Notes: generated by a model from the letters alone, not told the origin. Shown: positions 13,531-30,452, counted from the first letter of the stretch. The stretch is DNA of 64,000 nucleotides from Kofleriaceae bacterium (GCA_035715365.1 DASTLB010000022.1:144242-208241); one strand, 5' to 3'. Numbers and translations are program-made.

Positions 13531-14217
13531 ATGGCCATGTCGAAACTGACCCATATCCTCGCTTCGCTCCTGCTCGCCGGCGCCGCCGGTGCCTGCGCTC
13601 CCTCGTTGACCTCGAACCACGCGGCGACCAAGCCGGTCCCGGTGCAGCCGGCCGTCCAGCTCGATCGCGCGAAGCTGCGCGCGAAGCTCGCCGCGCGCCG
13701 CGAGGTCGTCGTCCAGCGCTTCCTCGCGTATCGCGAGGGCCGCGTCTACCCGATCAACAACCTGCCCGGCGGCGGCTTCCGCCACGTCTGGATCGACGAC
13801 ACCGGCAACCTGTGCGCCGCCGCAACGCTCGTCAGCCGTGACTGGGGACGCGACGCCGCGATCGAGGCGATGCAGGGCAACCGCGAGATCAAGCTCGCCG
13901 ACGTCAAGTCCGGTCCGCTCGCCGACTGGATCCTGACCTCGGGCCTCACGCATGCCGAGATCGTGTCGATCCAGGTGCCGGGTTTCGACCCGTGCGATGG
14001 CGGCCGCTGCCGCCAGGACGAGACCGACCCGCGCCGCCAGGAGGTCGATCGGCTGTACGGCATCTACATCGACGTCGAGCGCCAGATCCGCTCGCTGTGG
14101 GACGAGAACCTCGACGCCGCGACCGACGCGCTGATGAAGCGCCCCGACCTCGCGCGCGCGGTGCTGAACGACCGCGTCGCCGGCCCCGGCCGCTTCGCGA
14201 AGTCGCCCGTCGGCTGA
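13531..14217 (+). CDS. hypothetical lipoprotein
   Basis: Signal/lipobox MAMSKLTHILASLLLAGAAGAC. Confidence 0.5.
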   Translation: MAMSKLTHILASLLLAGAAGACAPSLTSNHAATKPVPVQPAVQLDRAKLRAKLAARREVVVQRFLAYREGRVYPINNLPGGGFRHVWIDDTGNLCAAATLVSRDWGRDAAIEAMQGNREIKLADVKSGPLADWILTSGLTHAEIVSIQVPGFDPCDGGRCRQDETDPRRQEVDRLYGIYIDVERQIRSLWDENLDAATDALMKRPDLARAVLNDRVAGPGRFAKSPVG

Positions 14218-14237
14218 AGCTGGGGCATGCTCGCCGC

Positions 14238-15140
14238 GTGAGCCTCGAGTACATCTTCGACGACATCACGATCGCGTGCACGAACGTCGATCGCGTGATG
14301 TGGCCGGACGAGGGCATCACGAAGGCCGAGCTGATCGGCTACTACCACTACGTCGCCGACTACATGCTGCCCGAGCTTCGCGAGCGGCCACTCTCCGTCG
14401 AGCGTTACACGAAGGGCGTCGATCGCGGCGGCTTCTTCCAGAAGCACTATCAGAAGCACTACCCGGCGTGGCTCGACAAGGTCGAGGCCGGGACGAAGAC
14501 GCGCGTCGTCTATCCGATCGTCAACACGACCGCGGGCCTCGTCTACATGGCGAACCAGGGCTCGATCGCGTTCCACGTCTGGACGAGCCGCCGCGAGACC
14601 CTCGAGTACCCGGACCTGATCGTCTTCGATCTCGATCCGCCCGAGGGCAAGCTCGATCTCGTCCGCCAGACCGCGCTGATCTTGCGCGAGCTGTTCGAGC
14701 AGCTCGAGCTGCCCGCGTTCGTCAAGACCACCGGCGGCAAGGGCCTGCACGTCGTCGCGCCGACCGATGGCCGCGCCAGCTACGGCGAGGTCATGGCGTT
14801 CTGCAACCGCGTCGCGAAGCTGCTGTGCGATCGCTACCCCGACCTCATGACGATCGAGTTCTACAAGAAGGACCGCAAGGGCCGGCTCTACCTCGACACC
14901 ATGCGCAACGCGCTCGGCGCGACGATCATCGCGCCGTACTCGGTGCGCGGCCGGCCGGGTGCGCCGATCGCGATGCCGATCGAGTGGGCCGAGGTCGAGG
15001 ACCCGGCGATGGCGCCGAACGGGTTCCGGCTGCGCGACATCCGCAAGCGGATCGGCGAGCGCGGCGATCCGTGGGCGACGCTGCGCGATCGCGTCGGCTC
15101 GCTCGACGACGCCGAGGCCGCGCTCGAGCGGCTGCGCTAG
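14238..15140 (+). CDS. LigD polymerase (primase-polymerase) domain protein, stand-alone
   Basis: Strong similarity pattern to the NHEJ LigD Pol domain (FQKHYQKHYPAW, MVFDLDP, GGKGLHV, APYSVRGRPGAPIAMP); GTG start. Confidence 0.7.
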   Translation: MSLEYIFDDITIACTNVDRVMWPDEGITKAELIGYYHYVADYMLPELRERPLSVERYTKGVDRGGFFQKHYQKHYPAWLDKVEAGTKTRVVYPIVNTTAGLVYMANQGSIAFHVWTSRRETLEYPDLIVFDLDPPEGKLDLVRQTALILRELFEQLELPAFVKTTGGKGLHVVAPTDGRASYGEVMAFCNRVAKLLCDRYPDLMTIEFYKKDRKGRLYLDTMRNALGATIIAPYSVRGRPGAPIAMPIEWAEVEDPAMAPNGFRLRDIRKRIGERGDPWATLRDRVGSLDDAEAALERLR

Positions 15141-15146
15141 TTGTTG

Positions 15147-15632
15147 CTAATTGTTGCGTGCGGTCGCCGCCGCCCGCAGGGTGTCGAACACGAAGCGCTC
15201 GAAGCCTTCCTCGTCGGTCGGCGCGAACGTCGCGCCCCAGTTGCGATGCTTGCCGCCCTGCTCGCTCTCGCACACGATCGCGGTCGGCGCACCGCCGAGC
15301 TCGGTCGCGTACTCGCTGTGCTCGAGCAGGAACATCCGGGCGTACGCGCCGTCCTTGACGACGAACCGGATCGACCACGGCTCGCCGGTCTTCGTGACCT
15401 CGCGAAAGCTCATGTAGACGAGCGAGCCGTTGCCGAGCTTCTGGATCCCGTAGCTCAGCGGCGGGCGCGCGGGCGCGGTCGCGCCGGTGGTCGACAGCGA
15501 CCACGTCCACATCTGCTCGAGGAACGCGGGAGCAGCGTTGCCGTCGAGCCTCGTGAGGAAGCGCGCCGGATCCTGGTGGAACATCGGCGACAGCGCACGA
15601 TGGGCGAACGTCCAGAGCGTGGAGGGCGCCAT
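15147..15632 (-). CDS. hypothetical protein (about 160 aa)
   Basis: Clean ATG start MAPSTLWTF, diverging from the kinase-like gene; normal amino-acid composition, unlike the rest of the 995-aa antisense ORF it sits in. Confidence 0.45.
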   Translation of the reverse strand: MAPSTLWTFAHRALSPMFHQDPARFLTRLDGNAAPAFLEQMWTWSLSTTGATAPARPPLSYGIQKLGNGSLVYMSFREVTKTGEPWSIRFVVKDGAYARMFLLEHSEYATELGGAPTAIVCESEQGGKHRNWGATFAPTDEEGFERFVFDTLRAAATARNN

Positions 15633-15716
15633 ACCCGATCCTACAGCGTGATCGCGCACGATCGGAGGTCGTTGTCGCGCCGGGTTCGGGGCCGACGTGC
15701 TAGCGTCGCGGTGTAC

Positions 15717-16559
15717 ATGCTCGGCGCGGCCATCGGGAGGTTCCGCATCCAAGCTCGCCTGGGACGGGGCGGGTTCGGCGAGGTCTGGCTCGCGCAGCAC
15801 GAGGAAGCGCGCACGAAGGTCGCGATCAAGCTGTTCAACACCGAGGTCGCGGCGCACCCCGCGATCCAGCTGTGCTTCGACGAGGCGCGCCTGATCTCGC
15901 GCGTCGCGGCGTCGGGCATCGCGAAGGTGTACGACGCGAACGTGCTGTCGAACGGCGTCGCGTACCTGATCACCGAGTACGTCGAGGGCGAGGCGCTCGA
16001 CCGCCGGATCGCGCGCGGCCGCCACTCGGCGACCCAGCTCGCCGACATCATCGAGCAGACCGCGACCGCGCTCGTCACCGCCGCAAATGTCGGCGTGACG
16101 CACGCGAACCTCAAGCCGTCGAACATCTTCGTCGTGCCCGATCTCGATCGCGCGAGCGGCGAGCGCGTCGTCGTCGTCGACTTCGCGCACGCGAAGCTGA
16201 TGTCGGCGATGCCGGATCACGGCAACCCGACGTACATGGCGCCGGAGCAGATCGCCGGCGCGAAGTACGACTGGCGCGTCGACGCGTACTCGCTCGGCTG
16301 CGTCGCGTTCGAGCTCGGCTGCCAGCGCCCGGTGTTCACCGGCGACAGCTGGGACAAGCTGCGCTCGAAGCACCAGAAGGAAAAGCCGCCGAACCTGCGC
16401 TCGTTCGTGCCCGACGCCAGCGCCGCGCTCGATCGCCTGATCGCGCGCATGCTCGAGAAGAATCCCGCCGAGCGCCCGAAGTCGATGAAGGACATCGCGA
16501 AGCTGTTCCAGCTGATGGTCGGCCTCGAGGCGCCGCTCGGCGAGACCGTCAAGGACTGA
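15717..16559 (+). CDS. Hanks-type protein kinase-like protein, probable pseudokinase
   Basis: GRGGFGEVW, VAIK and APE motifs present; catalytic loop reads HANLKPSN instead of HRDLKPxN; DFA instead of DFG. Confidence 0.6.
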   Translation: MLGAAIGRFRIQARLGRGGFGEVWLAQHEEARTKVAIKLFNTEVAAHPAIQLCFDEARLISRVAASGIAKVYDANVLSNGVAYLITEYVEGEALDRRIARGRHSATQLADIIEQTATALVTAANVGVTHANLKPSNIFVVPDLDRASGERVVVVDFAHAKLMSAMPDHGNPTYMAPEQIAGAKYDWRVDAYSLGCVAFELGCQRPVFTGDSWDKLRSKHQKEKPPNLRSFVPDASAALDRLIARMLEKNPAERPKSMKDIAKLFQLMVGLEAPLGETVKD

Positions 16560-16580
16560 CGCGCGCGCTATCCTGACCCG

Positions 16581-18176
16581 GTGTCCGGCGCGCCGCTCGT
16601 GACGTACTTCGACCCGCAGCCCGCGCGCGCGGAGCTGCCGGACGTGCTCGCGAGCCCGTTCGCGCACGGCGAGCCGCATCCCCTCGCGCGCCGCGCCGCC
16701 GACGAGACGTTCGCGATCGTGCAGCGGCTCGACGTCGGCCTCGAGCGCGACGGCAAGATGTTCGGCGTGCTCGTCGTCGCGGATCGCGACGGTCGCATCG
16801 GCTACCTGCGCGCGTTCTCGGGGATGCTCGCCGGGAGCTGGCTCGTCGACGGCTTCGCGCCGCCGGTGTTCGATCGCGAGGTGCGCGATGCCGTCTGGCT
16901 CGCCGGCGAGCGCGAGCTCGATGCGCTCACCGCGGAGCTCGCCGCGCACGACCACGAGGCCGAGCCGCGGCGTCGCGCACGCGCGGCGCTGCAAGCCCGA
17001 CATGCCGCGGAGCTCGACGAGCTGCGCGCGCGACACCGCGCGAATCGCGAGGCGCGCAGCCAGCAGCGCGCACACGCCGCCGACGCGCACGCGCTCGATC
17101 AGCTGAGCCGCGGCGACAAGGCGGAGCGCCGCCGGCTGCTCGCGCGCCACGCCGACGAGCTGCGTCCGATGACAGACGAGGTCGCTCGGCTCGACGCCGA
17201 AGCGCGCCGCCTCGTCGACGAGCGGACGGCGCGATCGCAGGCGCTGTTCGATCACGTGATCGACAGCTACGTGCTCGCGAACGCGCGTGGCGAGCGGGCG
17301 CGGCTGCGCGACGTGTTCGCACCCGAGCTTCCGCCCGGTGGTGCGGGCGACTGCGCGGCGCCGAAGCTGCTCGCGGCGGCGTATCGCGAACGGCTGCGAC
17401 CGCTCGCGCTCGCCGAGATCTGGTGGGGCGCATCGCCGGCCACCGGTGGCCGCCATCACGGCCGGTGCTATCCCGCGTGCCGAGGCAAGTGCGGCCCGGT
17501 GCTCGGGTTCATGCTGCAAGGCCTCGCGGTCGAGCGCGCGCCGGTGTTCGCGACGGCGCACGACACCGAGCTGCGCGTCGTGCACGAGGATCCGTGGCTC
17601 GTCGTCGTCGACAAGCCGGCCGGCATGCTGTCGGTGCCGGGCCGCGACGCCGCGCTTGCCGACTCGGTGCAATCGCGGCTGCGCGCGCGCGACGGGGACG
17701 TTCGGCTCGTCCACCGGCTCGACCTCGACACCTCGGGGCTGCTCGTCGCCGCGAAGGATGCCGCGAGCCACGCCGTGCTGCAGGCGCAGTTCGCGCGCCG
17801 CGAGGTCGGCAAGCGCTACGTCGCGTGGGTCGACGGCGCGGTCACCGGCGATCACGGCACGATCGAGCTCGCGCTGCGCGTCGATCTCGACGATCGCCCG
17901 CGCCAGATCCACGACCCGGTGCACGGCAAGCCTGCGATCACCGAGTGGCGCGTCCTCGCGCGCACGCCGACGCGGACGAAGCTCGCGCTGTGTCCGCGCA
18001 CCGGACGCACGCACCAGCTGCGCGTCCATACCGCGCTCGGGCTCGGCGCGCCGATCGTCGGCGATCGGCTGTACGGCCACGCGGCCGAGCGCCTGCTGTT
18101 GCATGCCGAGGCGCTGACATTCACGCACCCGCACACCGGCGAGCGCGTCGAGCTCGAGTCGCCAGCGCCGTTCTGA
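16581..18176 (+). CDS. RluA-family pseudouridine synthase with about 300-aa N-terminal extension
   Basis: HRLDLDTSGLLV catalytic motif; GTG start. Confidence 0.7.
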   Translation: MSGAPLVTYFDPQPARAELPDVLASPFAHGEPHPLARRAADETFAIVQRLDVGLERDGKMFGVLVVADRDGRIGYLRAFSGMLAGSWLVDGFAPPVFDREVRDAVWLAGERELDALTAELAAHDHEAEPRRRARAALQARHAAELDELRARHRANREARSQQRAHAADAHALDQLSRGDKAERRRLLARHADELRPMTDEVARLDAEARRLVDERTARSQALFDHVIDSYVLANARGERARLRDVFAPELPPGGAGDCAAPKLLAAAYRERLRPLALAEIWWGASPATGGRHHGRCYPACRGKCGPVLGFMLQGLAVERAPVFATAHDTELRVVHEDPWLVVVDKPAGMLSVPGRDAALADSVQSRLRARDGDVRLVHRLDLDTSGLLVAAKDAASHAVLQAQFARREVGKRYVAWVDGAVTGDHGTIELALRVDLDDRPRQIHDPVHGKPAITEWRVLARTPTRTKLALCPRTGRTHQLRVHTALGLGAPIVGDRLYGHAAERLLLHAEALTFTHPHTGERVELESPAPF

Positions 18177-18182
18177 GCGGTG

Positions 18183-18446
18183 TTACGCGCGCTCGACCGG
18201 ACCGGCGCCCGCCTTCGCGGCGAGCTCGTCGACGAGCGCCTGGCGCGTCTGCTTGCCGACGATGCCGTCGATCTGGATCGTCGCGTGCGCCTGGAACTCG
18301 CGGACGGCCTTCTGCGTGTTCGGGCCGTCCTTGCCGTCGATCTTGCCCGGATCGAAGCCGAGCTTCGAGAGCGCCTTCTGCACGCCCTCCAGCTCGTCGA
18401 GGTTGATGTAGCCGAACTTGTCGGAGTTGTGCTCGAACTTGGCCAT
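18183..18446 (-). CDS. peptidoglycan-binding domain (PG_binding_1) protein
   Basis: Motif GKIDGKDGPNTQKAVREFQ...IDGIVG. Confidence 0.6.
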   Translation of the reverse strand: MAKFEHNSDKFGYINLDELEGVQKALSKLGFDPGKIDGKDGPNTQKAVREFQAHATIQIDGIVGKQTRQALVDELAAKAGAGPVERA

Positions 18447-18457
18447 GGCGTTCGCTC

Positions 18458-18949
18458 CTACTTCTTCAGCGTCTTCTCGAAGTTGTCGACCGCCTTGTTG
18501 AGCGCGGCGATGTCGGCCTCGGCCGCGGTCTTGATGCCGGCGAGGTCCGCCGATGCCGCCGCATCGATCTTCGCCATGTCGGCGTTGACCGCCTCGCGAC
18601 GCTTCTGCACCTCGGCGTACGCGGCGTCGGCGTTCTTCTTCGCGGCGCCCTTCGCCTTGTCGAGCCGGCCCTTGAGGTCCTCGATCTTGCGGTCCGCGGC
18701 GTCGACGTCCTTCTTCAGCGCGTCGCGCACGTCGGTGCGGTCCTTCGCGATCTTGTCGTCGGCTTCCTTCTTCGCGGCGGCCTCGGCTTCGGCCTTCTTC
18801 TTGTCGGCCTCGGCTTGCGCCTTCGCCGCCTCGGCCTTCTCTTCGTCGGCCTTCTTCTGCGCCTTCTCGGCTTCTTCCTTCTTGTTCTTGCAGCCGGCCG
18901 CGCCAGCGAGCAGGCCGACGGACACGAGTCCCACGATGATCGAGCGCAT
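18458..18949 (-). CDS. Lys/Ala/Glu-rich coiled-coil lipoprotein
   Basis: Lipobox LLAGAAGC; K/A/E low-complexity helix. Confidence 0.55.
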   Translation of the reverse strand: MRSIIVGLVSVGLLAGAAGCKNKKEEAEKAQKKADEEKAEAAKAQAEADKKKAEAEAAAKKEADDKIAKDRTDVRDALKKDVDAADRKIEDLKGRLDKAKGAAKKNADAAYAEVQKRREAVNADMAKIDAAASADLAGIKTAAEADIAALNKAVDNFEKTLKK

Positions 18950-19017
18950 GAGGTCTCCTTTGGTCCCCCGAAATTACCGGAGTGGCCGCGGGAGCCGCGC
19001 GCCGCGAGCGTGAAGTC

Positions 19018-21129
19018 TCAGTGATGAGCAGGCGGCGGGGGCGGCTCGCCCGGCGCCTCGCGCGGCGGGATGAAGAACTCGAGCGGCCGCTTGACGAACC
19101 GCTTGAGCACCGCGACCGGGAGCATCCGGCGCTCGCCGCGTGGCACGTCGCGTGCGCGCAGGGCGATCACGAGCGCGAGCGCGAAGCTGACGCCGAAATT
19201 CATGAGCCCGATGATCGCGATGCCGATCGCGGCGGCCACGAACAGCCCGATCCCGATGTGATCGATGCCGACCGACGAGATCGCCAGCGTCAGCGAGCCC
19301 GTCGAGAGCGTGATGTGGCGGACGTCGAGCGGCAGGCCGAAGAACTTCGCGAACACCGGCAGCATGCCGAGCAAGAAGCCGAGCGACACCGAGCCGCCGA
19401 AGCCGGCCGCCTCGTGCTCGAGGAAGCGCGCAGCCTTCGCCATGCGTTGCTTGCCGAACCGCTTGCCCCAGCGATGATGCTCGATCGCCTCCGGGATGCG
19501 CCGGTACACGATCCAGTTCTCGAACCAGCCCGCGAACAAGCTGGACAGCCACAGCAGCACGCCGGTGAGCGCGGCGAAGAAGATCGTGCCCGAGCCGAGC
19601 GGATCGAACGATTGCACGGTCTTCATCGCGCCGTGCTCGTCGAGGAACGGATGGCCGACGACGCGCTGGTACAAGAAGTCGAACGCGAGCGCGGTCACGA
19701 TCACCGCGGACACGTTGCCGAGCGCGGCAGCGAACTGCGAGCGCGCGATGCGGGCGATCAGCGACACGAGCTCGTCCATGCGGTGCGGCCCGGACTTCTC
19801 GCGGATCGTGCCGGCGAGCGACGCCGCGGTCATCGACGGCTGCTTCGTCGCGAGCGTGAACCCGACGAGCTGCATGACGACGAAGCTCGCGGCGTAGTCG
19901 ATCGACGACAGCAGGCCATCGAGGAACGGCGCGAACTCGCCCCACTTGACGAGGAACTTGCCGATCGCGGTACCGCACGTCAGCACGCCGCCGCCGGCCG
20001 CCGACAGATACATCTTCCAGTACTCGCGCCGCGACGACGTCACGTAGTGCTCGCCGGTGCGGCCGGCGCGCTCGATCACCTTGCGCGCGAGCAGGCGCAG
20101 GTTGTCGTTGAGCAGCTGCTTGAAGCTGCGCCCACCGACGAGGCCGCGGCCGACCGACGCGATCAGCGCGCGGACCTCGTACGTCGGCTCGAGGGTGTCG
20201 GTGCCGTCGACGAATGGCAGCAAGATCTCGATCCGCGACAAACCCTGCTCGATCGAGTCGAGCGCGTACACGACGTCGATCGACACGCCGGTCTCTTCGA
20301 GCGCGACCTTGACGTGCTCGAGGTGCTTGCGGCACGCCTCGATCAGCGCCGGCATCTCCTGCGGGCGTGCGCGTGTCAGGTGATAGAGCGGCGAGTCGCG
20401 GATCGTCGTGCCGAGACCGCGGGTGCGAAACGCCTCGCTCATCCCGGCAGCCGCGATCCGCGTCGAGATCAGGCTGATCGCGTCGAGGATCGACGTGCGC
20501 AGCGGCTCCCACGAGTCACCGCCGGCGACCGCGAGCCGGTGCAGCAGCGGATCGGCGGCCGGGCCGAGCCACTCGAGATCGTCGAGCTTGCGCACGATCT
20601 GGTTCGCGAGGCGCCACAGCTCGTGCTGCGCAGGTGGCTCGGGCAGGAACTTGCGCGCGAGCCGGTCGGTGGTCTCGGCGAGCAGGCCGCGATCGTTCGG
20701 CAGGCCGATCTCGCCGAACAGCCGGATGCCGCGCGTCTGCGTCAGCACCGCATGCAGCGTGCCCTGGAACCGGCGGCGCGCCTGCGGGATGCGCTCGAGC
20801 GCGACGACGAGCATCTCGAGGCGCGACAGCGCCGGGTGCTGCGGCGAGCCGGGCACGCTCGGGCCCGCGATGATGAAGCGGCCGAGCTGCTCGATCGCGA
20901 GCAGCTGCTCGGGCAGCGGCGCGTCGGGCTTGCACTTCGCGAGCAAGATCCGCAGCAGCGGGCTCGCCTTCGCGTCGACGGCACCGATGATGCGGAGGAA
21001 TTCTTCACGAGGCGGAACCTCGTCGTTGCTCGCGCCCACGCGGTACGGGTCTTCGGTCAAAGCCTCGGGATGCGCCACCGCCAAAAATGCTAACACCGCC
21101 TCGATCGAGGCCGGGCGCATCCGGACCAA
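19018..21129 (-). CDS. large membrane protein (PF10136 putative-site-specific-recombinase-like family?)
   Basis: 703 aa; soluble N-terminal half plus multiple C-terminal TM helices; family assignment is from memory and uncertain. Confidence 0.4.
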   Translation of the reverse strand: MVRMRPASIEAVLAFLAVAHPEALTEDPYRVGASNDEVPPREEFLRIIGAVDAKASPLLRILLAKCKPDAPLPEQLLAIEQLGRFIIAGPSVPGSPQHPALSRLEMLVVALERIPQARRRFQGTLHAVLTQTRGIRLFGEIGLPNDRGLLAETTDRLARKFLPEPPAQHELWRLANQIVRKLDDLEWLGPAADPLLHRLAVAGGDSWEPLRTSILDAISLISTRIAAAGMSEAFRTRGLGTTIRDSPLYHLTRARPQEMPALIEACRKHLEHVKVALEETGVSIDVVYALDSIEQGLSRIEILLPFVDGTDTLEPTYEVRALIASVGRGLVGGRSFKQLLNDNLRLLARKVIERAGRTGEHYVTSSRREYWKMYLSAAGGGVLTCGTAIGKFLVKWGEFAPFLDGLLSSIDYAASFVVMQLVGFTLATKQPSMTAASLAGTIREKSGPHRMDELVSLIARIARSQFAAALGNVSAVIVTALAFDFLYQRVVGHPFLDEHGAMKTVQSFDPLGSGTIFFAALTGVLLWLSSLFAGWFENWIVYRRIPEAIEHHRWGKRFGKQRMAKAARFLEHEAAGFGGSVSLGFLLGMLPVFAKFFGLPLDVRHITLSTGSLTLAISSVGIDHIGIGLFVAAAIGIAIIGLMNFGVSFALALVIALRARDVPRGERRMLPVAVLKRFVKRPLEFFIPPREAPGEPPPPPAHH

Positions 21130-21157
21130 AGCTCGCGGTAGGCAGGACTCCGACTGG

Positions 21158-23461
21158 TCAGCGGATCGTCCACGTCGTCGGCGGCACGAAGAACTTCGTC
21201 GTGCCAGCCTCGATCATCGACGCGCCCGTGTGCAGCGTTCCGGCGAGCGTCGCGATCACCTTGACCTTCGCGGTGAACGTCTGGCCCGGCGCGAGCGGCG
21301 CCAAGTGCAGATCGATCTTGCCGTCGGCAATCTCGAACCGCTGCACCGCACCGGACGCGACGAGCGCCTCGAGGCTGGGGCGATCGACCTGCACGCCCGC
21401 AGGGAGTGCGTGCTGCACGTGCACGGGAATTCCCGAGGGCGCGATCGCGGTGATCGCGATCTCGGTCGCCTTGCCGACGCTCGCGTCGACCTTCGCCGGC
21501 AGCGCGAGCTCGAGGCCCTGCTGCGTCGACTGCTTCTCCCACGGCACCCACGCCTGCAGCGCGAGCGAATATCCGAGGCCGGGCACCGCGGGCTCGGCGG
21601 CGATCGACCACGCCTGCTTGCCGGCGAAGCCGCGCGCCGGACCGTCGAGCACGAGCACGTCCTTGAGCTGCGCGGCATCGAACTGTCCGCTCGCGACCGG
21701 TTGACCGTCCATCTGCAGCGTGATCTTCACGCTGCCCGGCAGGCGATCCTTGAACAGCGCGAGCACCGCGCGCATGCATGCGAGGTTCGCGACACCATCG
21801 CCCCAGCCGTACGCCGGCGCGTACGAGCCGAGCAGCGTCGTGCCGAGATCGGCGAGCACCGGCGCTGCCTTCGGATCGCCCGCGAGTGCGAGCACCGCGA
21901 GCGCGGTCGCCTCGGCGCGCGACGGCGTGGTGCCATCGGCGCGCACGACGCCCTCGTCGACGCGCAGGTAGCTCGCGCCGTCGTCGGCCTTCGTGACCGC
22001 GGCGAGCACGCGCGCGCGCAGCTTGTCGGCGAGCTCGCCCTTGACCGCACCGCTCGCGAGGATCGCGGCCGCGGTGTAGCCGTCGGTGATCTGATCGGCG
22101 GTGCGCGCGAACGCACCCGCGGCCTTCGCCTGCACCGCCATCGCGCGCTGCCGGGCCGTCGTCGTCGACAGGTTCGCACCCGCGGCGCGCGTCGCGTCCG
22201 CGGTCGTGACGAGCACGCGCTGCAGTGTCCAGCCGCTCGGCGCGCCGGCGAACGTCCCGTCGGGCCGCTGCTGCTGCGCGAGATAGGCCGCGGCGCGCTC
22301 GCCGAGCCGCGCGACGACCGGCTTGTCGAGATGCGTGAATGCCGCCTCTGCGAGCAGCGTCGCGCTCGTGACGTCGAGCGTGCGGCCATCGCGGATCGCG
22401 CGCTGCGAGGTCACGATCGACAGCGTGCGCAGCGCCTCGGGATCGGGCTTGTCGCCGAGCGACTGCAGGAGATCGGTCGCGCGGCCGGCGAGCAGCAGCG
22501 CGTACGCGTCCTCGGCGATGCCGGCACGCGCGCTCGACACCGCGAGCTCGGAGCGCAGGATCGCGAGCGCGCCCGGGAACACGAGCAGCCGCACGCGATC
22601 GGCGGCGGGATCGGAGCCCGTGGGGCCGTCGATCGTGACGGTACGCGGCGCCGCGAGCGTCCCGGTGCGCGTGACGACGACCGGCTTGCCCGCGGGCACG
22701 ACGTCGATCGTGTGCGCGACCGCGTCGGTGGCGCCGAGGCCGACGCGCAGCTTGATCGTGCCGGGCCGCTTCGCGCGCAGCGTGATGTGATCGACGAGGC
22801 TGCCCTGCGCCGGGATCGTGCGCGTGCCGCCGCCGCCGCCGAGCTCGCCACCCTCGATCTGCAGCGCGAGCTTGTCCGTGACCGCGGCCTGCGTCGTGTT
22901 GACCATCTGGATCGGCAACCGGATCTCGTCGCCCGCGATCAGGAAGGGCGGCACGACCGGATCGACGTACGCCGACAGCGTGCCGAGGAAGCTCGTCGTC
23001 GCGCCTGCCTGCGCGCCGGTGCGCGAGTGCGCGAGCGCGAGCACGCGCCACGTCGTCAGTCGATCCGGCACGTGCACGGGCACCGTCGCTTCGCCGCGAT
23101 CGTTCGTCACGACGAGCGGCTCGAACAGGAACGTCTCGGGGAACCACGCGCGTGTCGGTGCTTCGTTCGCCGGAGTGCTCGGGTCCGGAGACTTCGCGCG
23201 GTGCTTGCCGTCGTTGTCCTTTTCGGCGTCCTGCTTCGCCTCGCTCTTCATCGTCAGCTTCGTGTCGGCGAGCTCGGCGCCCGGCGGCGCGGGCTTGTCG
23301 GCTTCCTGCTCGGTCGCCGCGAACGTCTGGCCAGCGGCCGACCCCGCGACGCGATTCGCCGCGGGCTCCTTGGAGACATCCCCGGATCGCGAGGCGCTCT
23401 TCTCGCCACCCTTGCACGCGAGCGCGAGCAGCAGCACCGCGAGCCACTTGTGATTGCGCAT
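21158..23461 (-). CDS. alpha-2-macroglobulin family lipoprotein, C-terminal half (A2M / TED-like / receptor-binding domains)
   Basis: Lipobox LLLALAC; low-complexity linker; A2M hallmark WFPETFLFEP...LTTWRVLA; no CxEQ thioester seen. Confidence 0.7.
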   Translation of the reverse strand: MRNHKWLAVLLLALACKGGEKSASRSGDVSKEPAANRVAGSAAGQTFAATEQEADKPAPPGAELADTKLTMKSEAKQDAEKDNDGKHRAKSPDPSTPANEAPTRAWFPETFLFEPLVVTNDRGEATVPVHVPDRLTTWRVLALAHSRTGAQAGATTSFLGTLSAYVDPVVPPFLIAGDEIRLPIQMVNTTQAAVTDKLALQIEGGELGGGGGTRTIPAQGSLVDHITLRAKRPGTIKLRVGLGATDAVAHTIDVVPAGKPVVVTRTGTLAAPRTVTIDGPTGSDPAADRVRLLVFPGALAILRSELAVSSARAGIAEDAYALLLAGRATDLLQSLGDKPDPEALRTLSIVTSQRAIRDGRTLDVTSATLLAEAAFTHLDKPVVARLGERAAAYLAQQQRPDGTFAGAPSGWTLQRVLVTTADATRAAGANLSTTTARQRAMAVQAKAAGAFARTADQITDGYTAAAILASGAVKGELADKLRARVLAAVTKADDGASYLRVDEGVVRADGTTPSRAEATALAVLALAGDPKAAPVLADLGTTLLGSYAPAYGWGDGVANLACMRAVLALFKDRLPGSVKITLQMDGQPVASGQFDAAQLKDVLVLDGPARGFAGKQAWSIAAEPAVPGLGYSLALQAWVPWEKQSTQQGLELALPAKVDASVGKATEIAITAIAPSGIPVHVQHALPAGVQVDRPSLEALVASGAVQRFEIADGKIDLHLAPLAPGQTFTAKVKVIATLAGTLHTGASMIEAGTTKFFVPPTTWTIR

Positions 23462-23463
23462 GT

Positions 23464-26400
23464 TCAAGGCCTCTCCCGGGCGACCCACTGGGCCCAGTTC
23501 TCGACGTCCTCGGGCAACCGCGTACCGACGACGATCACCGCACGCGGATCGGTGAGCGACAGTAGATCCGGCGGCAACCGCGACAGCCGCAACGTGCGGC
23601 CATACGCGTCGGTCACCGGCTGGCCGCGCGACTTGCACGCCGCGATCGCCTTGCTCCACAGGCTCGCCATCGTCACCGGGCGCATCTTCTCGCCGGCGGG
23701 AGCCTTCGCTTCCCACACCCGGGCCTGCGCGTGAAGCTCGGCGAGCACGACGTAGAAGTGATCGGTCAGATCCTCGACCGGATCGAACGCACTGCGCGCC
23801 GACGTGCTGACCACGGCATCGAGCTCCGGCGGCTTCGGGATCGCGGTCACGCGCAGCACGGTCGCCGCCGCCGCGTTCGCGCCGCGGATCCGGCCGAGCG
23901 CGAGCGCCTGACCGTCGAGCGCGCCGAACGCCGGCGCGCTGGTCTCGACCTGCGGCCGGACGCGGCCCATCGCGTCCGGTCCCGGCAGCGGGACGAGCTG
24001 ACCGAGGCTGTCGTCGACGCCGAACAGCCCGACCGCTGCCTTGCCGCCTTGCTTGCCGACGCGCGTCTGGATCACGAGCTCGGCGCGCTGGCCGGGCGCG
24101 TACTGCGGCTGCTTCGGCTGGACCGTGACCTCGAGCTCGGCCTTCGGCTGCACGTAGACGAGCGCGCGCACGCCGCCGCCGGTGACCTCGCACCAGCCCT
24201 CGACGTTCGCGGCGAGCGGCAGCACCGCCTTGCGCTCGGCGTCGAGGTCGACCTTCTTCTCGTACGCGAGACAGTGCACCTCGAGCTGCTTTGGCAATTG
24301 CCCGGTGAACTCCGGGCCGCGGATCAGCTGCGCGGTGATCGACTCGCCGGGCTTCGCGATCACCGGCGTGACGCGCAGCCGCAGGTTCGGGACCTCGCCC
24401 GGCGTGATCCGCAGCTTCGTCGATGCCGGCTTGCCGTCGATCGTCGTCTCGACGTCGAGCTCGTAGCCGAGCATCGTCGTCGGCTGCGGCTTCTGCTGCG
24501 CGAGCCGCGCCGGCAGCTCGAGCGAGAACCGCACGAAGCCGAGCGCGTCCGCCGTGGCCTTGTCCGCGAGCTCGACGCGGCCGCCGAGCCGCGACTGCAC
24601 GCACGCCATCGCCGACGCCGCCGGCCGCTCCGCCTTCGGATCGTTCGCCCAGCCGGCGAGCTCGACGACCTTGTCGCCGGCGCGCACGCGCCACGCGAGC
24701 AGCTGCGGCAGATCGCCGTCGATCGTCGGCAGGCAGTCGCGGGCGCCCCGCGCGCGCTCCGCGATCTCGGCCGCGAAGCCCGGGGGCACGTCGAGCGCGC
24801 TCTCGATCGACGGCACGAGCGTCGGCAGATCCGGATCGGTGAGCTGGAACTCGATCTTGTAGAGCCGCTCGCTGCCGGCCGGCAGCCGCTTGCCGCGGAC
24901 GATGCCGACGACACAGCGATCGAGTGCGGTCGTGCCGCCGCCCGCGGTCACGATCGTGCCGCGCGCGTCGACGCGCAACCCGACCGTCGACGACGTCGCG
25001 TCGCCGACCCACTTCGCGCACGGCGCGAGCGCGGGCAGCCACCTGTCGAGCTCGACCTGATCCGCGAGCGGCGCGCCCTCGTCTCCGATCAGCTCCTCGG
25101 CCTCACCGCGGGTGACCAGCGCCGCGCGTGGCGCCGGCCGGAACGGCAGCGCCGGGATCACGATGTTGACCGGTGCGCCGGGATCGATCTGCAGGCTCGC
25201 GACGCCGTCCTCGTCGAGCTCGGCCTCGACGCCCGGATCGCCGGGCTGCCACGTGCGCTTGACCTTGATCTTCTGCTTGCCGACGACGCGGCCGTCCGGC
25301 GTCGTGACGCGCACGAACAGCCGGTTGTTGAAGCTCTGGACCAGCCCGTTGCCGAGCTCGGTCACCGCGGTCGCCGCGATGCCGTCCTGCGCGAGCAGCA
25401 CCTGCGCCGCGCCCGCGACGCGATCGCCCGCCGGATCGATCGCCGAGATCCGCGCGGTCAGCGTGACGCTGCCCTGCAGATCGTCGGGCACCTTCGGCAG
25501 CGCGAGCTCGAACCGCCCGTTCGCGCCGGTGACCGCCTGCTTCGGCAGCAGCCGGTCCTGCCACTCGGTCGGCGGCGGCCATGCGCCCGCGACCTCCCAC
25601 TGGATCTCGAGGTTCGCGCGCGCGACCGGCGCGCCCGAGCTGTACACGACGCTGCCCTGGATCGCCGGCGCGTCGCCGGGACGATAGAACGCACGCCCCG
25701 CGGTCGCCTCGACGCGAAACCGCGGCAGCGTGAATGGCTCGACGGTGAACGCGACCTCGTCGACCGCATCCGCCGATACCCAGGCGACGTGCCACGTCCC
25801 GGTCGCCGCGCCCTTGTCGAGCGGGAACGAGCCCGCGACCACGCCCCAGTCGCCGGCCGGCGCCTTCTCCTCGAGCAGCACCTCGCCCGACGGATCCTTG
25901 ATCGTCCACATCCCCGGCCGACCATCGATCGGCGCGAGGTCGCGCGCGCGCAGCACGACGGCGCGAAACTTCACGACGTTGCCGGGCTCGTAGAGCGGGC
26001 GGTCGGTGATCACGTGGATCCGCGCCGGCGTGTACAGCGGCAGCGGCGCGTCGAGCTCGCCCTTGCCGAGCCGGGTCTCGTACGCGACGTGCAGCTTGTA
26101 GTCACCGTCGGGGACGTCGGGCAGCTTCAGCGTACCGCGCTGCTGATCGCCGGAGCGCTCCCAGTCGATCGCGAGCGGCGTCGCCTTCTGCTTCGCGTCG
26201 ACGAGCGTCGTCGTGATCGACGAGAACCGCGGCACCGGCGCGGTTCGATCGAGGTCCGCCTCGTCGGTCGTGTAGTGCGCGATCGCGCCGAGATACACGT
26301 AGCCCTCGGCGCCGCGCCGCAGCCCCGCGAGCTGGAGCTCGGCGGTCTGGCGGACGTCGCCGTCGGGACACTCCGGGATCGCGATCCCGTACTTCTCGAA

Positions 26401-26484
26401 CGCGTGGCGACAGATGTTCGACGGGATCAGGATCCCGATCAGAAAGAACGCCGCCGCGAGCGAGATCCACGCTTCACGCTTCAT
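23464..26484 (-). CDS. alpha-2-macroglobulin family protein, N-terminal MG-domain half
   Basis: N-terminal signal anchor; MG-domain signatures ITDRPLYEPGNVVKFRAVV and FTVEPFTLPRFRV; stop is 2 nt before the next gene's ATG. Confidence 0.7.
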   Translation of the reverse strand: MKREAWISLAAAFFLIGILIPSNICRHAFEKYGIAIPECPDGDVRQTAELQLAGLRRGAEGYVYLGAIAHYTTDEADLDRTAPVPRFSSITTTLVDAKQKATPLAIDWERSGDQQRGTLKLPDVPDGDYKLHVAYETRLGKGELDAPLPLYTPARIHVITDRPLYEPGNVVKFRAVVLRARDLAPIDGRPGMWTIKDPSGEVLLEEKAPAGDWGVVAGSFPLDKGAATGTWHVAWVSADAVDEVAFTVEPFTLPRFRVEATAGRAFYRPGDAPAIQGSVVYSSGAPVARANLEIQWEVAGAWPPPTEWQDRLLPKQAVTGANGRFELALPKVPDDLQGSVTLTARISAIDPAGDRVAGAAQVLLAQDGIAATAVTELGNGLVQSFNNRLFVRVTTPDGRVVGKQKIKVKRTWQPGDPGVEAELDEDGVASLQIDPGAPVNIVIPALPFRPAPRAALVTRGEAEELIGDEGAPLADQVELDRWLPALAPCAKWVGDATSSTVGLRVDARGTIVTAGGGTTALDRCVVGIVRGKRLPAGSERLYKIEFQLTDPDLPTLVPSIESALDVPPGFAAEIAERARGARDCLPTIDGDLPQLLAWRVRAGDKVVELAGWANDPKAERPAASAMACVQSRLGGRVELADKATADALGFVRFSLELPARLAQQKPQPTTMLGYELDVETTIDGKPASTKLRITPGEVPNLRLRVTPVIAKPGESITAQLIRGPEFTGQLPKQLEVHCLAYEKKVDLDAERKAVLPLAANVEGWCEVTGGGVRALVYVQPKAELEVTVQPKQPQYAPGQRAELVIQTRVGKQGGKAAVGLFGVDDSLGQLVPLPGPDAMGRVRPQVETSAPAFGALDGQALALGRIRGANAAAATVLRVTAIPKPPELDAVVSTSARSAFDPVEDLTDHFYVVLAELHAQARVWEAKAPAGEKMRPVTMASLWSKAIAACKSRGQPVTDAYGRTLRLSRLPPDLLSLTDPRAVIVVGTRLPEDVENWAQWVARERP

Positions 26485-26722: not shown

Positions 26723-27106
26723 ATGAAGCGGTACGTCCTGGTGTTCTCGGCACTCGGGCTCGTCGGCTGTTTCCTGCCGCTCGTGACGTGGCGCGGCACC
26801 TCGATCAGCGTGTTCGACCTGCGGTACGCGTCGTGGCGGCCGTACGTCACGATGCTCGCGTTCGCGCTGCCCGCCTTGATCGCGTGGCGCGGCACGAGCC
26901 GCGCGACCGCGAAGGCCGGGTTCGTGTGCTTCGGCTACCTCGCGCTGAAGCTCGGGCCGAAGGCGCTCGATCTCGTGCTGCGCGCCGGGCTCGGCGGCAA
27001 GCTGATCGGCATCGCGGTCGTCGGCGGCGTGCTCGCGACGATCGGCCTCGCGCTCGAACCGGTCACGCGCGGATCTTCTTGTTCTCCGGATCGTACAGAG
27101 GCTTGA
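26723..27106 (+). CDS. small polytopic membrane protein (hypothetical)
   Basis: MKRYVLVFSALGLVGCFLPLV...; 3-4 hydrophobic helices. Confidence 0.35.
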   Translation: MKRYVLVFSALGLVGCFLPLVTWRGTSISVFDLRYASWRPYVTMLAFALPALIAWRGTSRATAKAGFVCFGYLALKLGPKALDLVLRAGLGGKLIGIAVVGGVLATIGLALEPVTRGSSCSPDRTEA

Positions 27107-29531
27107 GCGACGCGGTCGCGGGATGGCGCTTGCCCGCGATGTCGACCTCCCAGGTGCCGCGCTCGATCCAGCCCGGATCGATCGCACCGCCCTGCGGCGC
27201 CTGGATCATCGCGAGCCCGACCGCGCCCCCGAGCGTGTGACCGTACGACGCCGCGCGCACGTAGCCGACCGGCACGCCATCGCGATGCACGATCTCGGCG
27301 TGGAACATCAGCGGCTCCGGATCGCGGACGAGGATCTGCAGCAGCCGCTGGCGCAGTGGTCCCGCCGCCTTCTGCGCGACGACCGCCTCCTTGCCGAGGA
27401 AGCCGCCCGGCTTCTTGAGATCGACGGCGAACCCGAGCCCGGCCTCGAGCACGGTGTCGGTGTTGTCGATGTCGTGGCCGTAATCGCGATAGCCCTTCTC
27501 CATCCGCAGGCTCGCGAGCGACTTGAGCCCCGCGTGCTTGAGCCCGAAGCCCTCGCCGGCGGCGACGAGCCGATCGTAGACGTGTGCGGTCTGCTCCGCC
27601 GGAATGTAGAGCTCGTATCCCAGCTCGCCGAGATACGTGATCCGGATACACAGCACGCGCGCGAAGCCAATATCGATCATCCGCGCGGCACGAAACGGCA
27701 TTGCCTCGTTCGACAGATCGGCAGTCGTGATCGATTGCAGCAGCGCACGCGAGCGTGGACCCTGGATGTTGATCTGCCCGTGCGCCCCGGTGACGTCGGT
27801 GACGAACGCGTGCGCGGCCGCGTCCTCGAAGTGCCGCCGCATCCAGGTCTCGACGTGGCGATGCACGGTGTCCGACGCGACGACCCAGTACTGCTCGTCG
27901 TCGAGCTTCGTAACCGTGAGATCCGCTTGCAGCTTGCCCGCGGCGTCGAGCCACTGCGTGTACGTGATCGTGCCGGCGTCTCCGTCGACGTTGTTCGCCG
28001 AGATGAAGTTGAGCAGGCGGCCCGCATCGCGTCCCTGGACGAGGAACTTCGACATGAACGACATGTCCATCAGGATCACACCCTCGCGACACGCGCGATG
28101 CTCGGCCTCCCAGGACGGAAACCAGCTCTCGCGGCCCCACGACAGCCGCTCGACCTTCGGCTCGACACCGGGCGGCGCGTACCAGTCGGCGCCTTCCCAG
28201 CCACTGACGTCGCGGAAGTACGCGCCTCTCGCGACGAGCCGATCGTGGAGCGGCGACAGCTTCGCACCGCGCGCGGTCTGCATCGTGTGGTTCGGGTAAT
28301 GGCACTTGTACACCATGCCGAGTGACTCGACGGTTCGCGTCCGCCGGTACTCCGGTGTCGATTGATACGGATGCAGTCGATCGATGTGCATCGCGGTGAC
28401 ATCGACATCGGGACTGCCGTTCAAGATCCAGTGCGCGAGCACGCGGCCCATGCCGCCGCCGGTCAGGATCCCGATCGAGTTGAGGCCGGCGGCGACGAAG
28501 TAGTTCCGCAGCTCGGGCGACTCGCCGACGATCGGCCGGAGGTCGGGCGTGAAGCTCTCCGGACCGCAGAAGAACTTGCGAACCCCGACGGACATCGCGA
28601 TCGGGACGCGCTGCATCGCGGTCTCGACATACGGCCCCATGCGATCCCAGTCCGGCTGGATCTCGCCGAACGAGAAGTCGTCCGGGATGCCACGCACGTT
28701 CCACGGCGCGCACACCGGCTCGAACAGCCCGATCATCAGGCCGCCAACCTCCTCGCGAAAGTACACGTACGATGCCGGATCCTCGAGCACCGGCCAGTCC
28801 TTCGACAGCTCGGGAATCCGCTCGGTGATCAAGTAATAGTGTTCCGCGGCCTGATTGGGAATCGACACGCCCGCGAGCGCGCCGAGCTGCCGCGCCCACA
28901 TGCCTGCGCAGTTGACGACGTACTCGGCCTCGATGTCGCCGTACGCGGTGCGGACGCCCGTCACGCGGCCGCGCTTCGATAGAAATCCGATCACCGGCAC
29001 GCCTTCGATCAGGTTCGCGCCCTGCATCCGCGCGCCCTTCGCGAGCGCCATCGTGACGCCGACCGGATCGGCGCGGCCGTCCTCCTTGACGTAGAACCCG
29101 GCGAGCAGGTCGTCGGTCTTCGCGAGCGGGAACAGCTCGCGCACCTGCGCCGGCGAGATCTCGTGGACGTCGATCCCGAGGTGGCGATTGAACGCCGACA
29201 CGCGCCGGTACTCCTCGAGGCGATCGCGATCGGCCGCGACCTCGATGAAGCCGGTGCGGCGAAATCCCGTCGATTGCCCGGTCTCCTGCTCGAGCCGCGC
29301 GTAGAGATCGCACGAGTACTTGCGCATCTCCGTCGAGGTCTCCGACGTCGAGCCGAACGTCACCATCAGCCCGGCCGCGTGCCACGTGGTGCCCGACGTC
29401 AGCCGGTCGCGCTCGAGCAGCACGACGTCCTGGCAGCCCATGTGGGCGAGGTGATACGCGACGGAGCATCCGATGATGCCGCCGCCGACGATGACGACGC
29501 GGGCGCGCGACGGTAGCTGGGGCACGGTCAT
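27063..29531 (-). CDS. dimethylglycine/sarcosine dehydrogenase family (FAD oxidoreductase fused to GcvT folate-binding domain)
   Basis: FAD dinucleotide motif VVIVGGGIIGCSVAYHLA; C-terminal aminomethyltransferase-like domain; start at MTVPQL. Confidence 0.75.
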   Translation of the reverse strand: MTVPQLPSRARVVIVGGGIIGCSVAYHLAHMGCQDVVLLERDRLTSGTTWHAAGLMVTFGSTSETSTEMRKYSCDLYARLEQETGQSTGFRRTGFIEVAADRDRLEEYRRVSAFNRHLGIDVHEISPAQVRELFPLAKTDDLLAGFYVKEDGRADPVGVTMALAKGARMQGANLIEGVPVIGFLSKRGRVTGVRTAYGDIEAEYVVNCAGMWARQLGALAGVSIPNQAAEHYYLITERIPELSKDWPVLEDPASYVYFREEVGGLMIGLFEPVCAPWNVRGIPDDFSFGEIQPDWDRMGPYVETAMQRVPIAMSVGVRKFFCGPESFTPDLRPIVGESPELRNYFVAAGLNSIGILTGGGMGRVLAHWILNGSPDVDVTAMHIDRLHPYQSTPEYRRTRTVESLGMVYKCHYPNHTMQTARGAKLSPLHDRLVARGAYFRDVSGWEGADWYAPPGVEPKVERLSWGRESWFPSWEAEHRACREGVILMDMSFMSKFLVQGRDAGRLLNFISANNVDGDAGTITYTQWLDAAGKLQADLTVTKLDDEQYWVVASDTVHRHVETWMRRHFEDAAAHAFVTDVTGAHGQINIQGPRSRALLQSITTADLSNEAMPFRAARMIDIGFARVLCIRITYLGELGYELYIPAEQTAHVYDRLVAAGEGFGLKHAGLKSLASLRMEKGYRDYGHDIDNTDTVLEAGLGFAVDLKKPGGFLGKEAVVAQKAAGPLRQRLLQILVRDPEPLMFHAEIVHRDGVPVGYVRAASYGHTLGGAVGLAMIQAPQGGAIDPGWIERGTWEVDIAGKRHPATASLKPLYDPENKKIRA

Positions 29532-29627
29532 GAGCGGCGCAGCGTACCGCAGCCCGCCGGCTGGCCGAAAATGACAAAGCTCGTCGTGGCCCCCCGCCAC
29601 GACGAGCTTCGGTGTTAGCTCGGAAAT

Positions 29628-30452
29628 TTAGGGATACAGGCTCGACGCGCCGGTCTTGTCGAGGTTCGTCAGCACGAGGTCACCCTTCTGGGTGCCGTTG
29701 CACTGCGGGTAGTGCATCACCGACGACGAATCGTACGCCGTCAGCGCGCGCCAGCTGTTGTCCTCGAAGCACGTGCCCGACTCCGGCCGCGTGTGCTCGT
29801 GGCGGAAGCCGATCGTGTGGCCGAGCTCGTGACGCAGCACGCCGGTCAGCGTCCACGGGCTGATGTTGCCGAACGACGACGTCGAGACGAGGACCTCGCG
29901 GCTGCGCCGGCTCGAGCTCGGGAAGAACGCGCGCGCGAGGTACTGCGTCGTGCCGACCTCGCGAACGTCGAACACGACGTTGCTGTTGCGCGCGTTGCAG
30001 TTGTTGTCCTGCGACGCGTCGTGGATGAAGTTGACGCGCGCGGTCGCTTCCCACGCGCCGGTCGCCGAGTCCATCGCCGAGACGACCGCGCTGTAGCGGC
30101 TGCCGAAGCTCTTCGCGTCGACGCAGTACGTGAGGTTCTGCGCCTGGCTCGCCGACCACTTGTCATCCTGGTTGTTGACGCGGTTGACGATCAGGCCCTG
30201 CTCGATCGTCGTCACCCCCTCGGCACGATCCTGCGCGTCGGCGACCGACTGTAGATAGGAGTCGTAAAGCGAATGCATGGCATCTTCGCTGTCGACGAGC
30301 TCGTCACCGTTCAGGATGTAGTTGCCGGTATCGGCCTCCTGATACGCCTGCGCCTTGAACTCGTCGTAGGTCAGGACGCCGTCGTCCGAACCGCAGCCAG
30401 CCACGAACCCAAGAGCGAGGATGAAACCCGTCGAGAACCGCTTTGCGCTCAC
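29628..30452 (-). CDS. astacin-like (M12A) zinc metalloprotease lipoprotein
   Basis: Lipobox LGFVAGC; HELGHTIGFRHEHTRPE (HExxHxxGxxHE) plus Met-turn SVMHY. Confidence 0.7.
   Translation of the reverse strand: MSAKRFSTGFILALGFVAGCGSDDGVLTYDEFKAQAYQEADTGNYILNGDELVDSEDAMHSLYDSYLQSVADAQDRAEGVTTIEQGLIVNRVNNQDDKWSASQAQNLTYCVDAKSFGSRYSAVVSAMDSATGAWEATARVNFIHDASQDNNCNARNSNVVFDVREVGTTQYLARAFFPSSSRRSREVLVSTSSFGNISPWTLTGVLRHELGHTIGFRHEHTRPESGTCFEDNSWRALTAYDSSSVMHYPQCNGTQKGDLVLTNLDKTGASSLYP

Follow-up and report, generated by a model that had tools for sequence, protein, structure and literature searches.

When an alpha-2-macroglobulin (A2M) is encoded in two pieces, is the gene broken, or is the protein built from two subunits? 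The question is raised by a 64,000-nucleotide (nt) stretch of DNA from a Kofleriaceae bacterium (GCA_035715365.1 DASTLB010000022.1:144242-208241; hereafter the window, with a GC content of ~70%, its A2M genes being identical to proteins annotated in a Kofleriaceae metagenome-assembled genome), whose minus strand carries two adjacent open reading frames (ORFs), g1 (23464..26484, 1006 amino acids (aa)) and g2 (21158..23461, 767 aa), in different frames. A first-pass annotation, made from the sequence alone, had taken the two for a split A2M at the head of a five-gene envelope operon. We favor, with a probability of about 0.7, the reading that g1 and g2 are two subunits of one A2M-like protein of the Myxococcota, encoded by two translationally coupled genes. 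The system is best read as a thioester-less, two-subunit, membrane-tethered A2M, for which membership of the family suggests protease trapping. Of the earlier interpretation, the genuine split, the separate anchors, the missing thioester and the distinction from the A2M-PbpC and yfaS operons stood, and the five-gene module did not. It had overlooked the position of the break at the bait segment and the conservation of the pair throughout the Myxococcota; the system is thus wider in distribution than supposed, and smaller, with two genes instead of five.

A coupled gene pair conserved across the Myxococcota

The ORFs and the sequence between them agree with the original description of two minus-strand frames set 2 nt apart. 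At the junction (23459..23466, minus strand), which reads ...GAG AGG CCT TGA AC ATG CGC..., the TGA stop of g1 (23464-23466) is followed by AC and then by the ATG of g2 (23459-23461), giving a stop-to-start gap of 2 nt. The last codons of g1 (GAG AGG CCT) form a Shine-Dalgarno-like sequence for g2, and homologous junctions carry GAGAGG or GAGAAG in its place. Overlap of stop and start together with a Shine-Dalgarno-like sequence inside the end of g1 is, as judged from sequence, the signature of translational coupling. The start ATG of g1 has its own GGAGG before it, at the end of a divergent intergenic region of ~240 nt.

If the split were a local accident, unsplit relatives should be common. 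Homologues were listed as the best 120 for each half, and an exhaustive HMMER search of 1.84 billion cluster representatives returned 3911 matches, 210 of them below 1e-30, with lengths judged on the best 150. The best 120 homologues of g2 (57-73% identity) measure 712-856 aa, nearly all of the 120 listed for g1 measure ~990-1100 aa, and neither list holds a protein of ~1770 aa. Even down to 30% identity, the full-length g2 relatives among the best 150 of the 3911 matches span ~710-920 aa.

The gene order is equally constant. A scan of one genome per GTDB species found 213 relatives; 80 loci were retrieved, and 88 loci were searched by tblastn. All 80 retrieved loci (80/80), several of them from complete genomes, belong to Myxococcota (Kofleriaceae, Haliangiales, Archangium, Cystobacter, Corallococcus, Myxococcus, Hyalangium and Vitiosangium). 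In every one of the 86 tblastn loci with upstream DNA, g1 lies immediately upstream of g2 on the same strand. The distance from stop to start is between -4 and +2 nt in 83 of the 85 junctions scored, comprising ATGA/GTGA overlaps (-4, n=49), TGATG overlaps (-1, n=29) and spacings of 0 to +2 nt (n=5), the window type being among the last. Even P0232 (30% identity) and P0183, the most divergent members checked, still have the partner gene upstream, overlapping by 4 nt. A pairing that returns in every related locus examined goes far beyond what chance would produce. The junctions are evidently homologous throughout the phylum.

Could the pair nonetheless be an ordinary single-chain A2M disrupted by a frameshift, a sequencing error or pseudogenization? 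One database representative, P0121 (1801 aa, 57% identity), is indeed fused, and the g2 frame of the window stays open far upstream into g1 (ORF 21158..25042, 1294 aa). Long open alternative frames are, however, expected at ~70% GC, and P0121 reads through its junction out of frame, in an R/A/G-rich stretch followed by an intact internal lipoprotein signal, MKRTGIASLLLIAALSPSFGC. Since that out-of-frame junction keeps an internal lipoprotein signal, P0121 is itself a frameshift artefact. Moreover, hundreds of homologues of both g1 and g2 are half-size, and 85 independent assemblies, complete genomes included, share the same stop/start junction, the start codon of g2 and its signal sequence. 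A disrupted gene is thus an extremely improbable explanation, the least likely of those we weighed. The ‘fusion’ in P0121, a frameshift or assembly error, could mislead if it were taken for an unsplit orthologue.

A second way to obtain one long chain would be programmed ribosomal frameshifting (-1) towards the 3' end of g1, yielding a fused A2M with the separate g2 product as a minor species. The geometry is suggestive, in that 83/85 loci place g2 in the -1 frame relative to g1, and this frame is already open ahead of the start of g2. The offsets of -4, -1 and +2 are nevertheless variants of one homologous ATGA/TGATG coupling junction, and a CCCGGGA near the stop lies out of the slippery X_XXY_YYZ phase of g1. 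In addition, g2 conserves a start codon, a basic n-region, a hydrophobic core and a lipobox or transmembrane (TM) helix, elements that would serve no purpose, or do damage, within a fused chain. On these sequence features, we regard recoding as very unlikely.

The split is ancient and phylum-wide; it is also genuine and not a frameshift, as the first-pass annotation had proposed for the window, and the half-size homologues, the 86/86 adjacency and the 83/85 coupled junctions bear it out. The single polypeptide typical of the A2M/C3 superfamily was found nowhere, the related genomes having two ORFs in every locus and the sole fused entry being the artefact described above. The conserved unit is the two-gene pair.

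Architecture of the two chains and position of the break

Where, then, is the chain divided? By phmmer, g2 residues 85-194 align with positions 714-822 of human A2M, and positions 109-252 of the family profile with 726-873, such that R104-AWFPETF of g2 matches R732-KYFPETW of human A2M, just past the bait. In the C5 alpha chain, the same segment finds its match at residues 82-170, directly after C5a. On the other side of the break, g1 matches the end of the A2M_BRD profile (776-827) and continues into a tail of 180 aa. In human A2M, the BRD (Q602-R732) is inserted within MG6 and contains the bait (P690-T728), after which E729-R732 enters the next MG6 strand via an aperture framed by MG6, MG2 and MG3 (PMC9181621). 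From the alignments on either side of the break, g1 comprises MG1 to the first MG6 strands plus a BRD-like tail, and g2 comprises the rest. The break therefore maps to the human bait segment, within MG6, where the beta and alpha chains of C3, C4 and C5 are also divided. As in complement, it separates two MG6 halves, the core of g2 starting at the equivalent of C5 alpha ~82-86 or human A2M R732.

The masses of the two products are in keeping with a chain divided here. The pair encodes ~105 + 77 kDa, close to the fragments of bait-cleaved Sa-A2M (102 + 77 kDa) and MagD (91 + 74 kDa), which stay associated after cleavage (PMC5764988).

The N-terminal subunit, g1 (23464..26484, minus strand, ~105-108 kDa), contains a signal anchor, the domains from MG1 to the first MG6 strands and the BRD-like tail. 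Pfam recognizes MG2 at residues 155-236 (1.7e-18, above the gathering cut-off; 25777..26022, minus strand), CarboxypepD_reg at 275-331 and, weakly, A2M_BRD at 776-827. An AlphaFold2 (AF2) model with a mean predicted local distance difference test score (pLDDT) of 78.8 and a predicted template modelling score (pTM) of 0.43 has an N-terminal helix (H3-18) and a series of MG-like beta-sandwiches. Foldseek matched this model to C3, A2ML1, A2Moo, CD109, C5 and ECAM at E 1e-19 to 1e-16, C3/C5 beta chains included. The MG2 profile match and these structural matches give g1 the MG array of the A2M/C3 superfamily.

At its N-terminus, g1 has a hydrophobic helix (residues 3-24; 26413..26478, minus strand) followed by a conserved C25...C39-PDG motif, and its homologues share both the helix and the C...CPDG that follows; C25 and C39 are nearly invariant. 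Neither a lipobox nor an AxA site is present at the N-terminus of g1 or of its homologues, and the helix is probably an uncleaved signal anchor.

Two parts of g1 are less familiar. Between MG domains lies a confidently modelled alpha/beta insertion of ~215 aa (residues ~445-660; 24505..25152, minus strand), with three invariant cysteines (C489, C524 and C628) and a nearly invariant fourth (C584). The insert resembles two helix-plus-hairpin repeats and falls outside the canonical A2M domain set. Residues 811-890 (23815..24054, minus strand) form the end of the first MG6 half (AAVGLFGVDDS) and an extended conserved segment, after which a helical domain (891-1006; 23467..23814, minus strand) occupies the C-terminus, with helices at 902-927, 936-952 and others at pLDDT 75-93. 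The homologues of g1 share a conserved C-terminus, ...GTRLPEDVENWAQWVARERP. In the model, this helical tail would sit topologically where human A2M has BRD regions I-II, or C3 its LNK/ANA. Pfam at E <= 10 gave no match on the insert, the 814-900 segment or the helical tail.

The C-terminal subunit, g2 (21158..23461, minus strand, mature mass ~77 kDa), consists of a lipoprotein signal, a disordered linker, the second MG6 half, MG7, a CUB domain with an inserted TED, and an RBD. Its Pfam A2M domain (PF00207, 5.4e-13; residues 104-195; 22877..23152, minus strand) covers the second MG6 half and the start of MG7, and contains the near-invariant motifs WFPETFLFEP...VPDRLTTW. The AF2 model (pLDDT 81.3) is disordered at 1-112, beta at 160-295, helical at 298-570 and beta again from ~571/577 to 767. 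The helical part is a TED-like alpha/alpha toroid without a thioester (298-570, pLDDT ~90; 21752..22570, minus strand), and the last beta part is the second CUB half with an RBD/MG8-like domain (571-767, strands at pLDDT 86-97; 21161..21751, minus strand).

Native C5 and C3 alpha chains headed the Foldseek list for this model (E 4e-30, ~755-785 columns, query-normalized TM-score (TMq) ~0.5 versus ~0.27 for C3b), a rank that partly reflects chain length and is no proof of a special kinship with complement; A2ML1, oocyte A2M, TEP1 and CD109 were also matched. Taken with PF00207 and the beta/helical/beta order, these matches give g2 the layout of the A2M/C3 superfamily.

The thioester itself is missing. 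The CxEQ motif is absent from g2 and from the TED of every g2-like protein retrieved, as the first-pass annotation had noted for the window, and the only cysteines of g2 are Cys16 and Cys561. A phmmer search of the TED region against the PDB gave weak similarity to squalene-hopene-cyclase repeats and nothing else; because of this, the residues equivalent to the thioester cannot be aligned by sequence.

That each half carries its own signal was likewise confirmed: g1 has the anchor-like helix described above, and g2 a lipoprotein signal peptide (23414..23461, minus strand; start MRNHKWLAVLLLALAC16KGG) with the lipobox LALAC16, whose C16 is nearly invariant among homologues. An anchor stands at the N-terminus of every g2 homologue, in the form of a lipobox, a TM helix or a polytopic domain. 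By lineage, the lipobox is found in Kofleriaceae and Haliangiales, and a TM or signal-anchor helix in Myxococcaceae and Archangiaceae. In P0183 and P0212 (also in P0262 and P0264), a polytopic membrane domain of ~400 aa takes the place of the g2 lipoprotein signal. P0183 (L089, 8001..11270) is preceded with a 4-nt overlap by a g1-like gene and followed, again with a 4-nt overlap, by a gene for a 582-aa protein with a faint CarboxypepD_reg match.

Between anchor and core, g2 has a linker (residues 17-103; 23153..23413, minus strand) that is disordered (pLDDT 28-47), hypervariable (column conservation 0.12-0.53) and rich in A/G/E/P/S/D/K. Across the family, the distance from the anchor to the invariant TR(A/S)WFPE ranges over 25-155 aa, with a median of 93. 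The linker is the positional equivalent of the bait segment and hence a candidate tether or bait. An island, A(L/M)ALDEGKMGKK(D/E), recurs in 50 of 205 g2 linkers (for example in P0002, P0005 and P0009-P0012) and is absent from residues 17-103 of the g2 in the window; it could be a recognition or cleavage site.

Proposed assembly of the two chains and a possible trapping mechanism

Conservation and model confidence diverge at the break. The MG2 of g1 has a column conservation of 0.86-0.95 with a pLDDT of 43-63 in the isolated chain, g1 811-890 reaches 0.96 with a pLDDT of 30-51, and g2 101-160 lies at 0.75-0.98 with a pLDDT of 47-63. In other words, the most conserved segments (g1 151-260, g1 811-890 and g2 101-160) have the lowest single-chain pLDDT, and their counterparts in human A2M lie around the exit of the bait. 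The models suggest that these segments would fold only in the complex, around a shared MG6 domain.

We envisage that both chains would be exported separately and tethered to the inner membrane on its periplasmic side, with g1 held by its signal-anchor helix and g2 by its lipid (or, in other families, by its TM helix). Assembly would then proceed by completion of a composite MG6 beta-sandwich from g1 ~763-890 and g2 ~104-160, beside MG2, giving a C3-like two-chain molecule of ~105 + 77 kDa. We consider such a two-subunit complex probable. Its function would most likely be the non-covalent trapping of proteases that reach the periplasm, by analogy with the thioester-less type II A2M MagD.

It is conceivable, instead, that g1 and g2 are co-expressed yet independent and form no stable complex, for instance an MG-domain envelope protein and a stand-alone TED/RBD protein. 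Each has its own anchor, and both models fold most of their domains confidently alone; in P. aeruginosa, MagA, MagB and MagF work beside MagD as separate polypeptides (PMC5764988). Independent proteins would, however, hardly account for strict adjacency and conserved translational coupling in every locus. Nor would they account for a break that falls inside one beta-sandwich domain (MG6) as opposed to between domains, or for nearly invariant sequences flanking that break which are the very parts without a confident fold alone. We therefore judge independence unlikely.

Several points also weigh against the two-subunit trap that we prefer. The physical association of g1 and g2 and the composite MG6 are inferred, and trapping is carried over from family membership alone. 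The low pLDDT of the conserved segments may have another origin, such as a shallow multiple sequence alignment (52-56 sequences at ~60% identity). The TED and RBD of g2 are too divergent for any Pfam or NCBIfam match, and g1 carries, in addition, the ~215-aa insert and the helical tail. Finally, since the chain is already interrupted at the bait, bait cleavage in its canonical form could not be the trigger without some modification.

The last point invites speculation about what might replace that trigger. In human A2M, cutting the connector from bait to MG6 allows the new N-terminus to move, and MG7 then closes over MG6 (PMC9181621). Because cleavage of the connector is what permits this movement, we propose that the anchor and linker of g2 may take the holding role. 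The linker would then probably serve as tether and bait at once, its cutting freeing a new N-terminus as in human A2M. That the covalent bait has been replaced in this way by the g2 anchor and a hypervariable tether, whose cleavage springs the trap, is a tentative idea, less likely than not.

Myxobacteria secrete many proteases. It is plausible that the pair protects against the proteases that the myxobacteria themselves secrete.

Neighboring genes and relation to known A2M systems

Does the system extend beyond the pair? The downstream genes noted by the first-pass annotation are all present on the same strand. The first, g3 (19018..21129, minus strand), begins 28-37 nt after g2 and encodes a 703-aa polytopic membrane protein of the PF10136 family (‘SpecificRecomb’, 5.7e-179), whose name, ‘site-specific recombinase’, seems to be historical and ill suited to a membrane protein. 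It is followed by g4 (18458..18949, minus strand), a K/A/E-rich lipoprotein of 163 aa with weak, sub-threshold NCBIfam matches, and, 11 nt further on, by g5 (18183..18446, minus strand), a PG_binding_1 protein of 87 aa. A peptidoglycan-binding domain without an export signal is odd, and since g5 has neither a signal peptide nor a TM segment, a periplasmic role for it is doubtful. PADLOC and NCBIfam gave no match for g1 to g3.

An envelope-defence operon formed by all five co-directional genes would fit the common strand, the short gaps after g2, g3 and g4 (~28-37, 68 and 11 nt) and the recurrence of PF10136 after the pair in the five closest relatives; a scan also found no terminator-like site on the coding strand between g1 and g5, a result that is itself uninformative. 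The comparison across loci tells otherwise. A g3 gene follows the pair in only 5/88 loci, those of the closest relatives (L006, L007, L008, L009 and L011), and g4 and g5 have no homologue in the 88 related loci. No flanking gene family is common to more than 18 of the 88, and the genes lying between g2 and a convergent, conserved gene for pseudouridine synthase differ from genome to genome. These observations, together with the missing signal peptide of g5, make a five-gene operon improbable and give it no support as a functional module. Co-occurrence across Myxococcota upholds the g1-g2 pair (86/86) and speaks against g3-g5, which are local neighbors (g4 and g5 lineage-specific ones) and not components of the A2M system. 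Co-transcription of g1-g5 in this genome is possible.

The wider surroundings comprise genes for DAO-GCV_T, M10-like peptidase, pseudouridine synthase, kinase and LigD proteins. An M10/reprolysin-like metallopeptidase of 274 aa (29628..30452, minus strand) lies ~3 kb upstream of the pair. A DAO-FAO_M-GCV_T dehydrogenase (27063..29600) lies between it and g1, and the order peptidase-dehydrogenase-g1-g2 also occurs in L008. Convergent on the A2M locus from the other side, a plus-strand block (13992..18176) encodes a LigD primase-polymerase, a Ser/Thr kinase and a pseudouridine synthase (531 aa) whose N-terminus carries a long extension. This block is syntenic in L001 and L006-L008, lacks the kinase in L004, and marks the variable slot that holds g3-g5.

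How does the pair compare with A2M systems already described? With type II proteins (MagD/YfaS) it shares the A2M fold, the lack of CxEQ and a probable association with the inner membrane, MagD being periplasmic. On bait cleavage, the 91 + 74 kDa fragments of MagD stay together and hold the protease non-covalently (PMC5764988). MagD, however, is a single polypeptide encoded in the six-gene magABCDEF operon and depends on MagB for anchoring, whereas here two genes encode chains with anchors of their own. The yfaSTAQP/mag context is also lacking, in that g3-g5 differ and no neighbor is conserved across the 88 loci. Type II proteins retain a bait region; here a hypervariable, disordered segment stands at the bait position, but as the N-terminus of a separate chain, and it is a candidate bait at most.

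Like the type I proteins (ECAM/YfhM and Sa-A2M), the pair includes a membrane-anchored lipoprotein of the A2M superfamily. The MG2 of g1 matches 4u48, 5a42 and 4ziq at E 5e-7 to 1e-6, and the g1 model matches 4ziq at E 4e-16. The ~1650 aa of ECAM, by contrast, form one chain, which has a CLEQ thioester, and its gene is partnered by pbpC (PBP1c); none of these features is found here. The g2 profile at E <= 1e-3 found eukaryotic A2M and C5 and did not find ECAM or Sa-A2M. The original view that this arrangement differs from the A2M-PbpC and yfaS operons therefore holds, there being no pbpC and no mag-like neighbors.

There is a formal parallel with complement. In C3, C4 and C5, as here, the break falls between MG6 halves, with g1 in the position of the beta chain and g2 in that of the alpha chain. 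The complement chains, however, derive from one furin-cut precursor, are linked by disulfides and carry ANA and C345C, with a thioester in C3 and C4; the myxobacterial chains come from two genes, both have membrane anchors, and ANA, C345C and thioester are missing. Neither ANA nor C345C has a Pfam match, g2 ending at the RBD/MG8 and the tail of g1, which stands at the ANA/BRD position, having no detected homology.

The best sequence matches are to human A2M, A2ML1 and CD109 (E 1e-12 to 1e-10 for MG2, 6e-10 for the post-bait FPETW), which have the same domain order, and the conserved motifs are closer in sequence to these metazoan proteins than to ECAM. In those proteins, on the other hand, one chain contains a thioester as well as an uninterrupted BRD and bait, and the molecule is soluble or anchored by glycosylphosphatidylinositol.

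The open-access literature searched, including a 2026 review, describes two types of bacterial A2M, both single-chain, and no split form, an absence that is no proof of novelty; it likewise held nothing relevant on myxobacterial A2M. Type I combines a thioester with PBP1c, and type II lacks the thioester and belongs to the mag operon. To these the myxobacterial pair adds a third arrangement. It is conserved throughout a phylum of predators that secrete proteases, and its chain is interrupted at the part that normally has to be cut to set off the trap. Two questions can be put to this natural experiment: does the native state depend on an unbroken backbone at the bait, and how can a shared MG6 form from two chains that are exported? 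Where a genome of the Myxococcota lists an ‘MG2 domain-containing protein’ and then an ‘alpha-2-macroglobulin family protein’, annotation should treat the two as one system and not as a broken gene. If the tether does prove to act as bait, the pair would be a bacterial, gene-level counterpart of the beta/alpha design of C3 and C5, and would bring a different trigger logic to the A2M superfamily.

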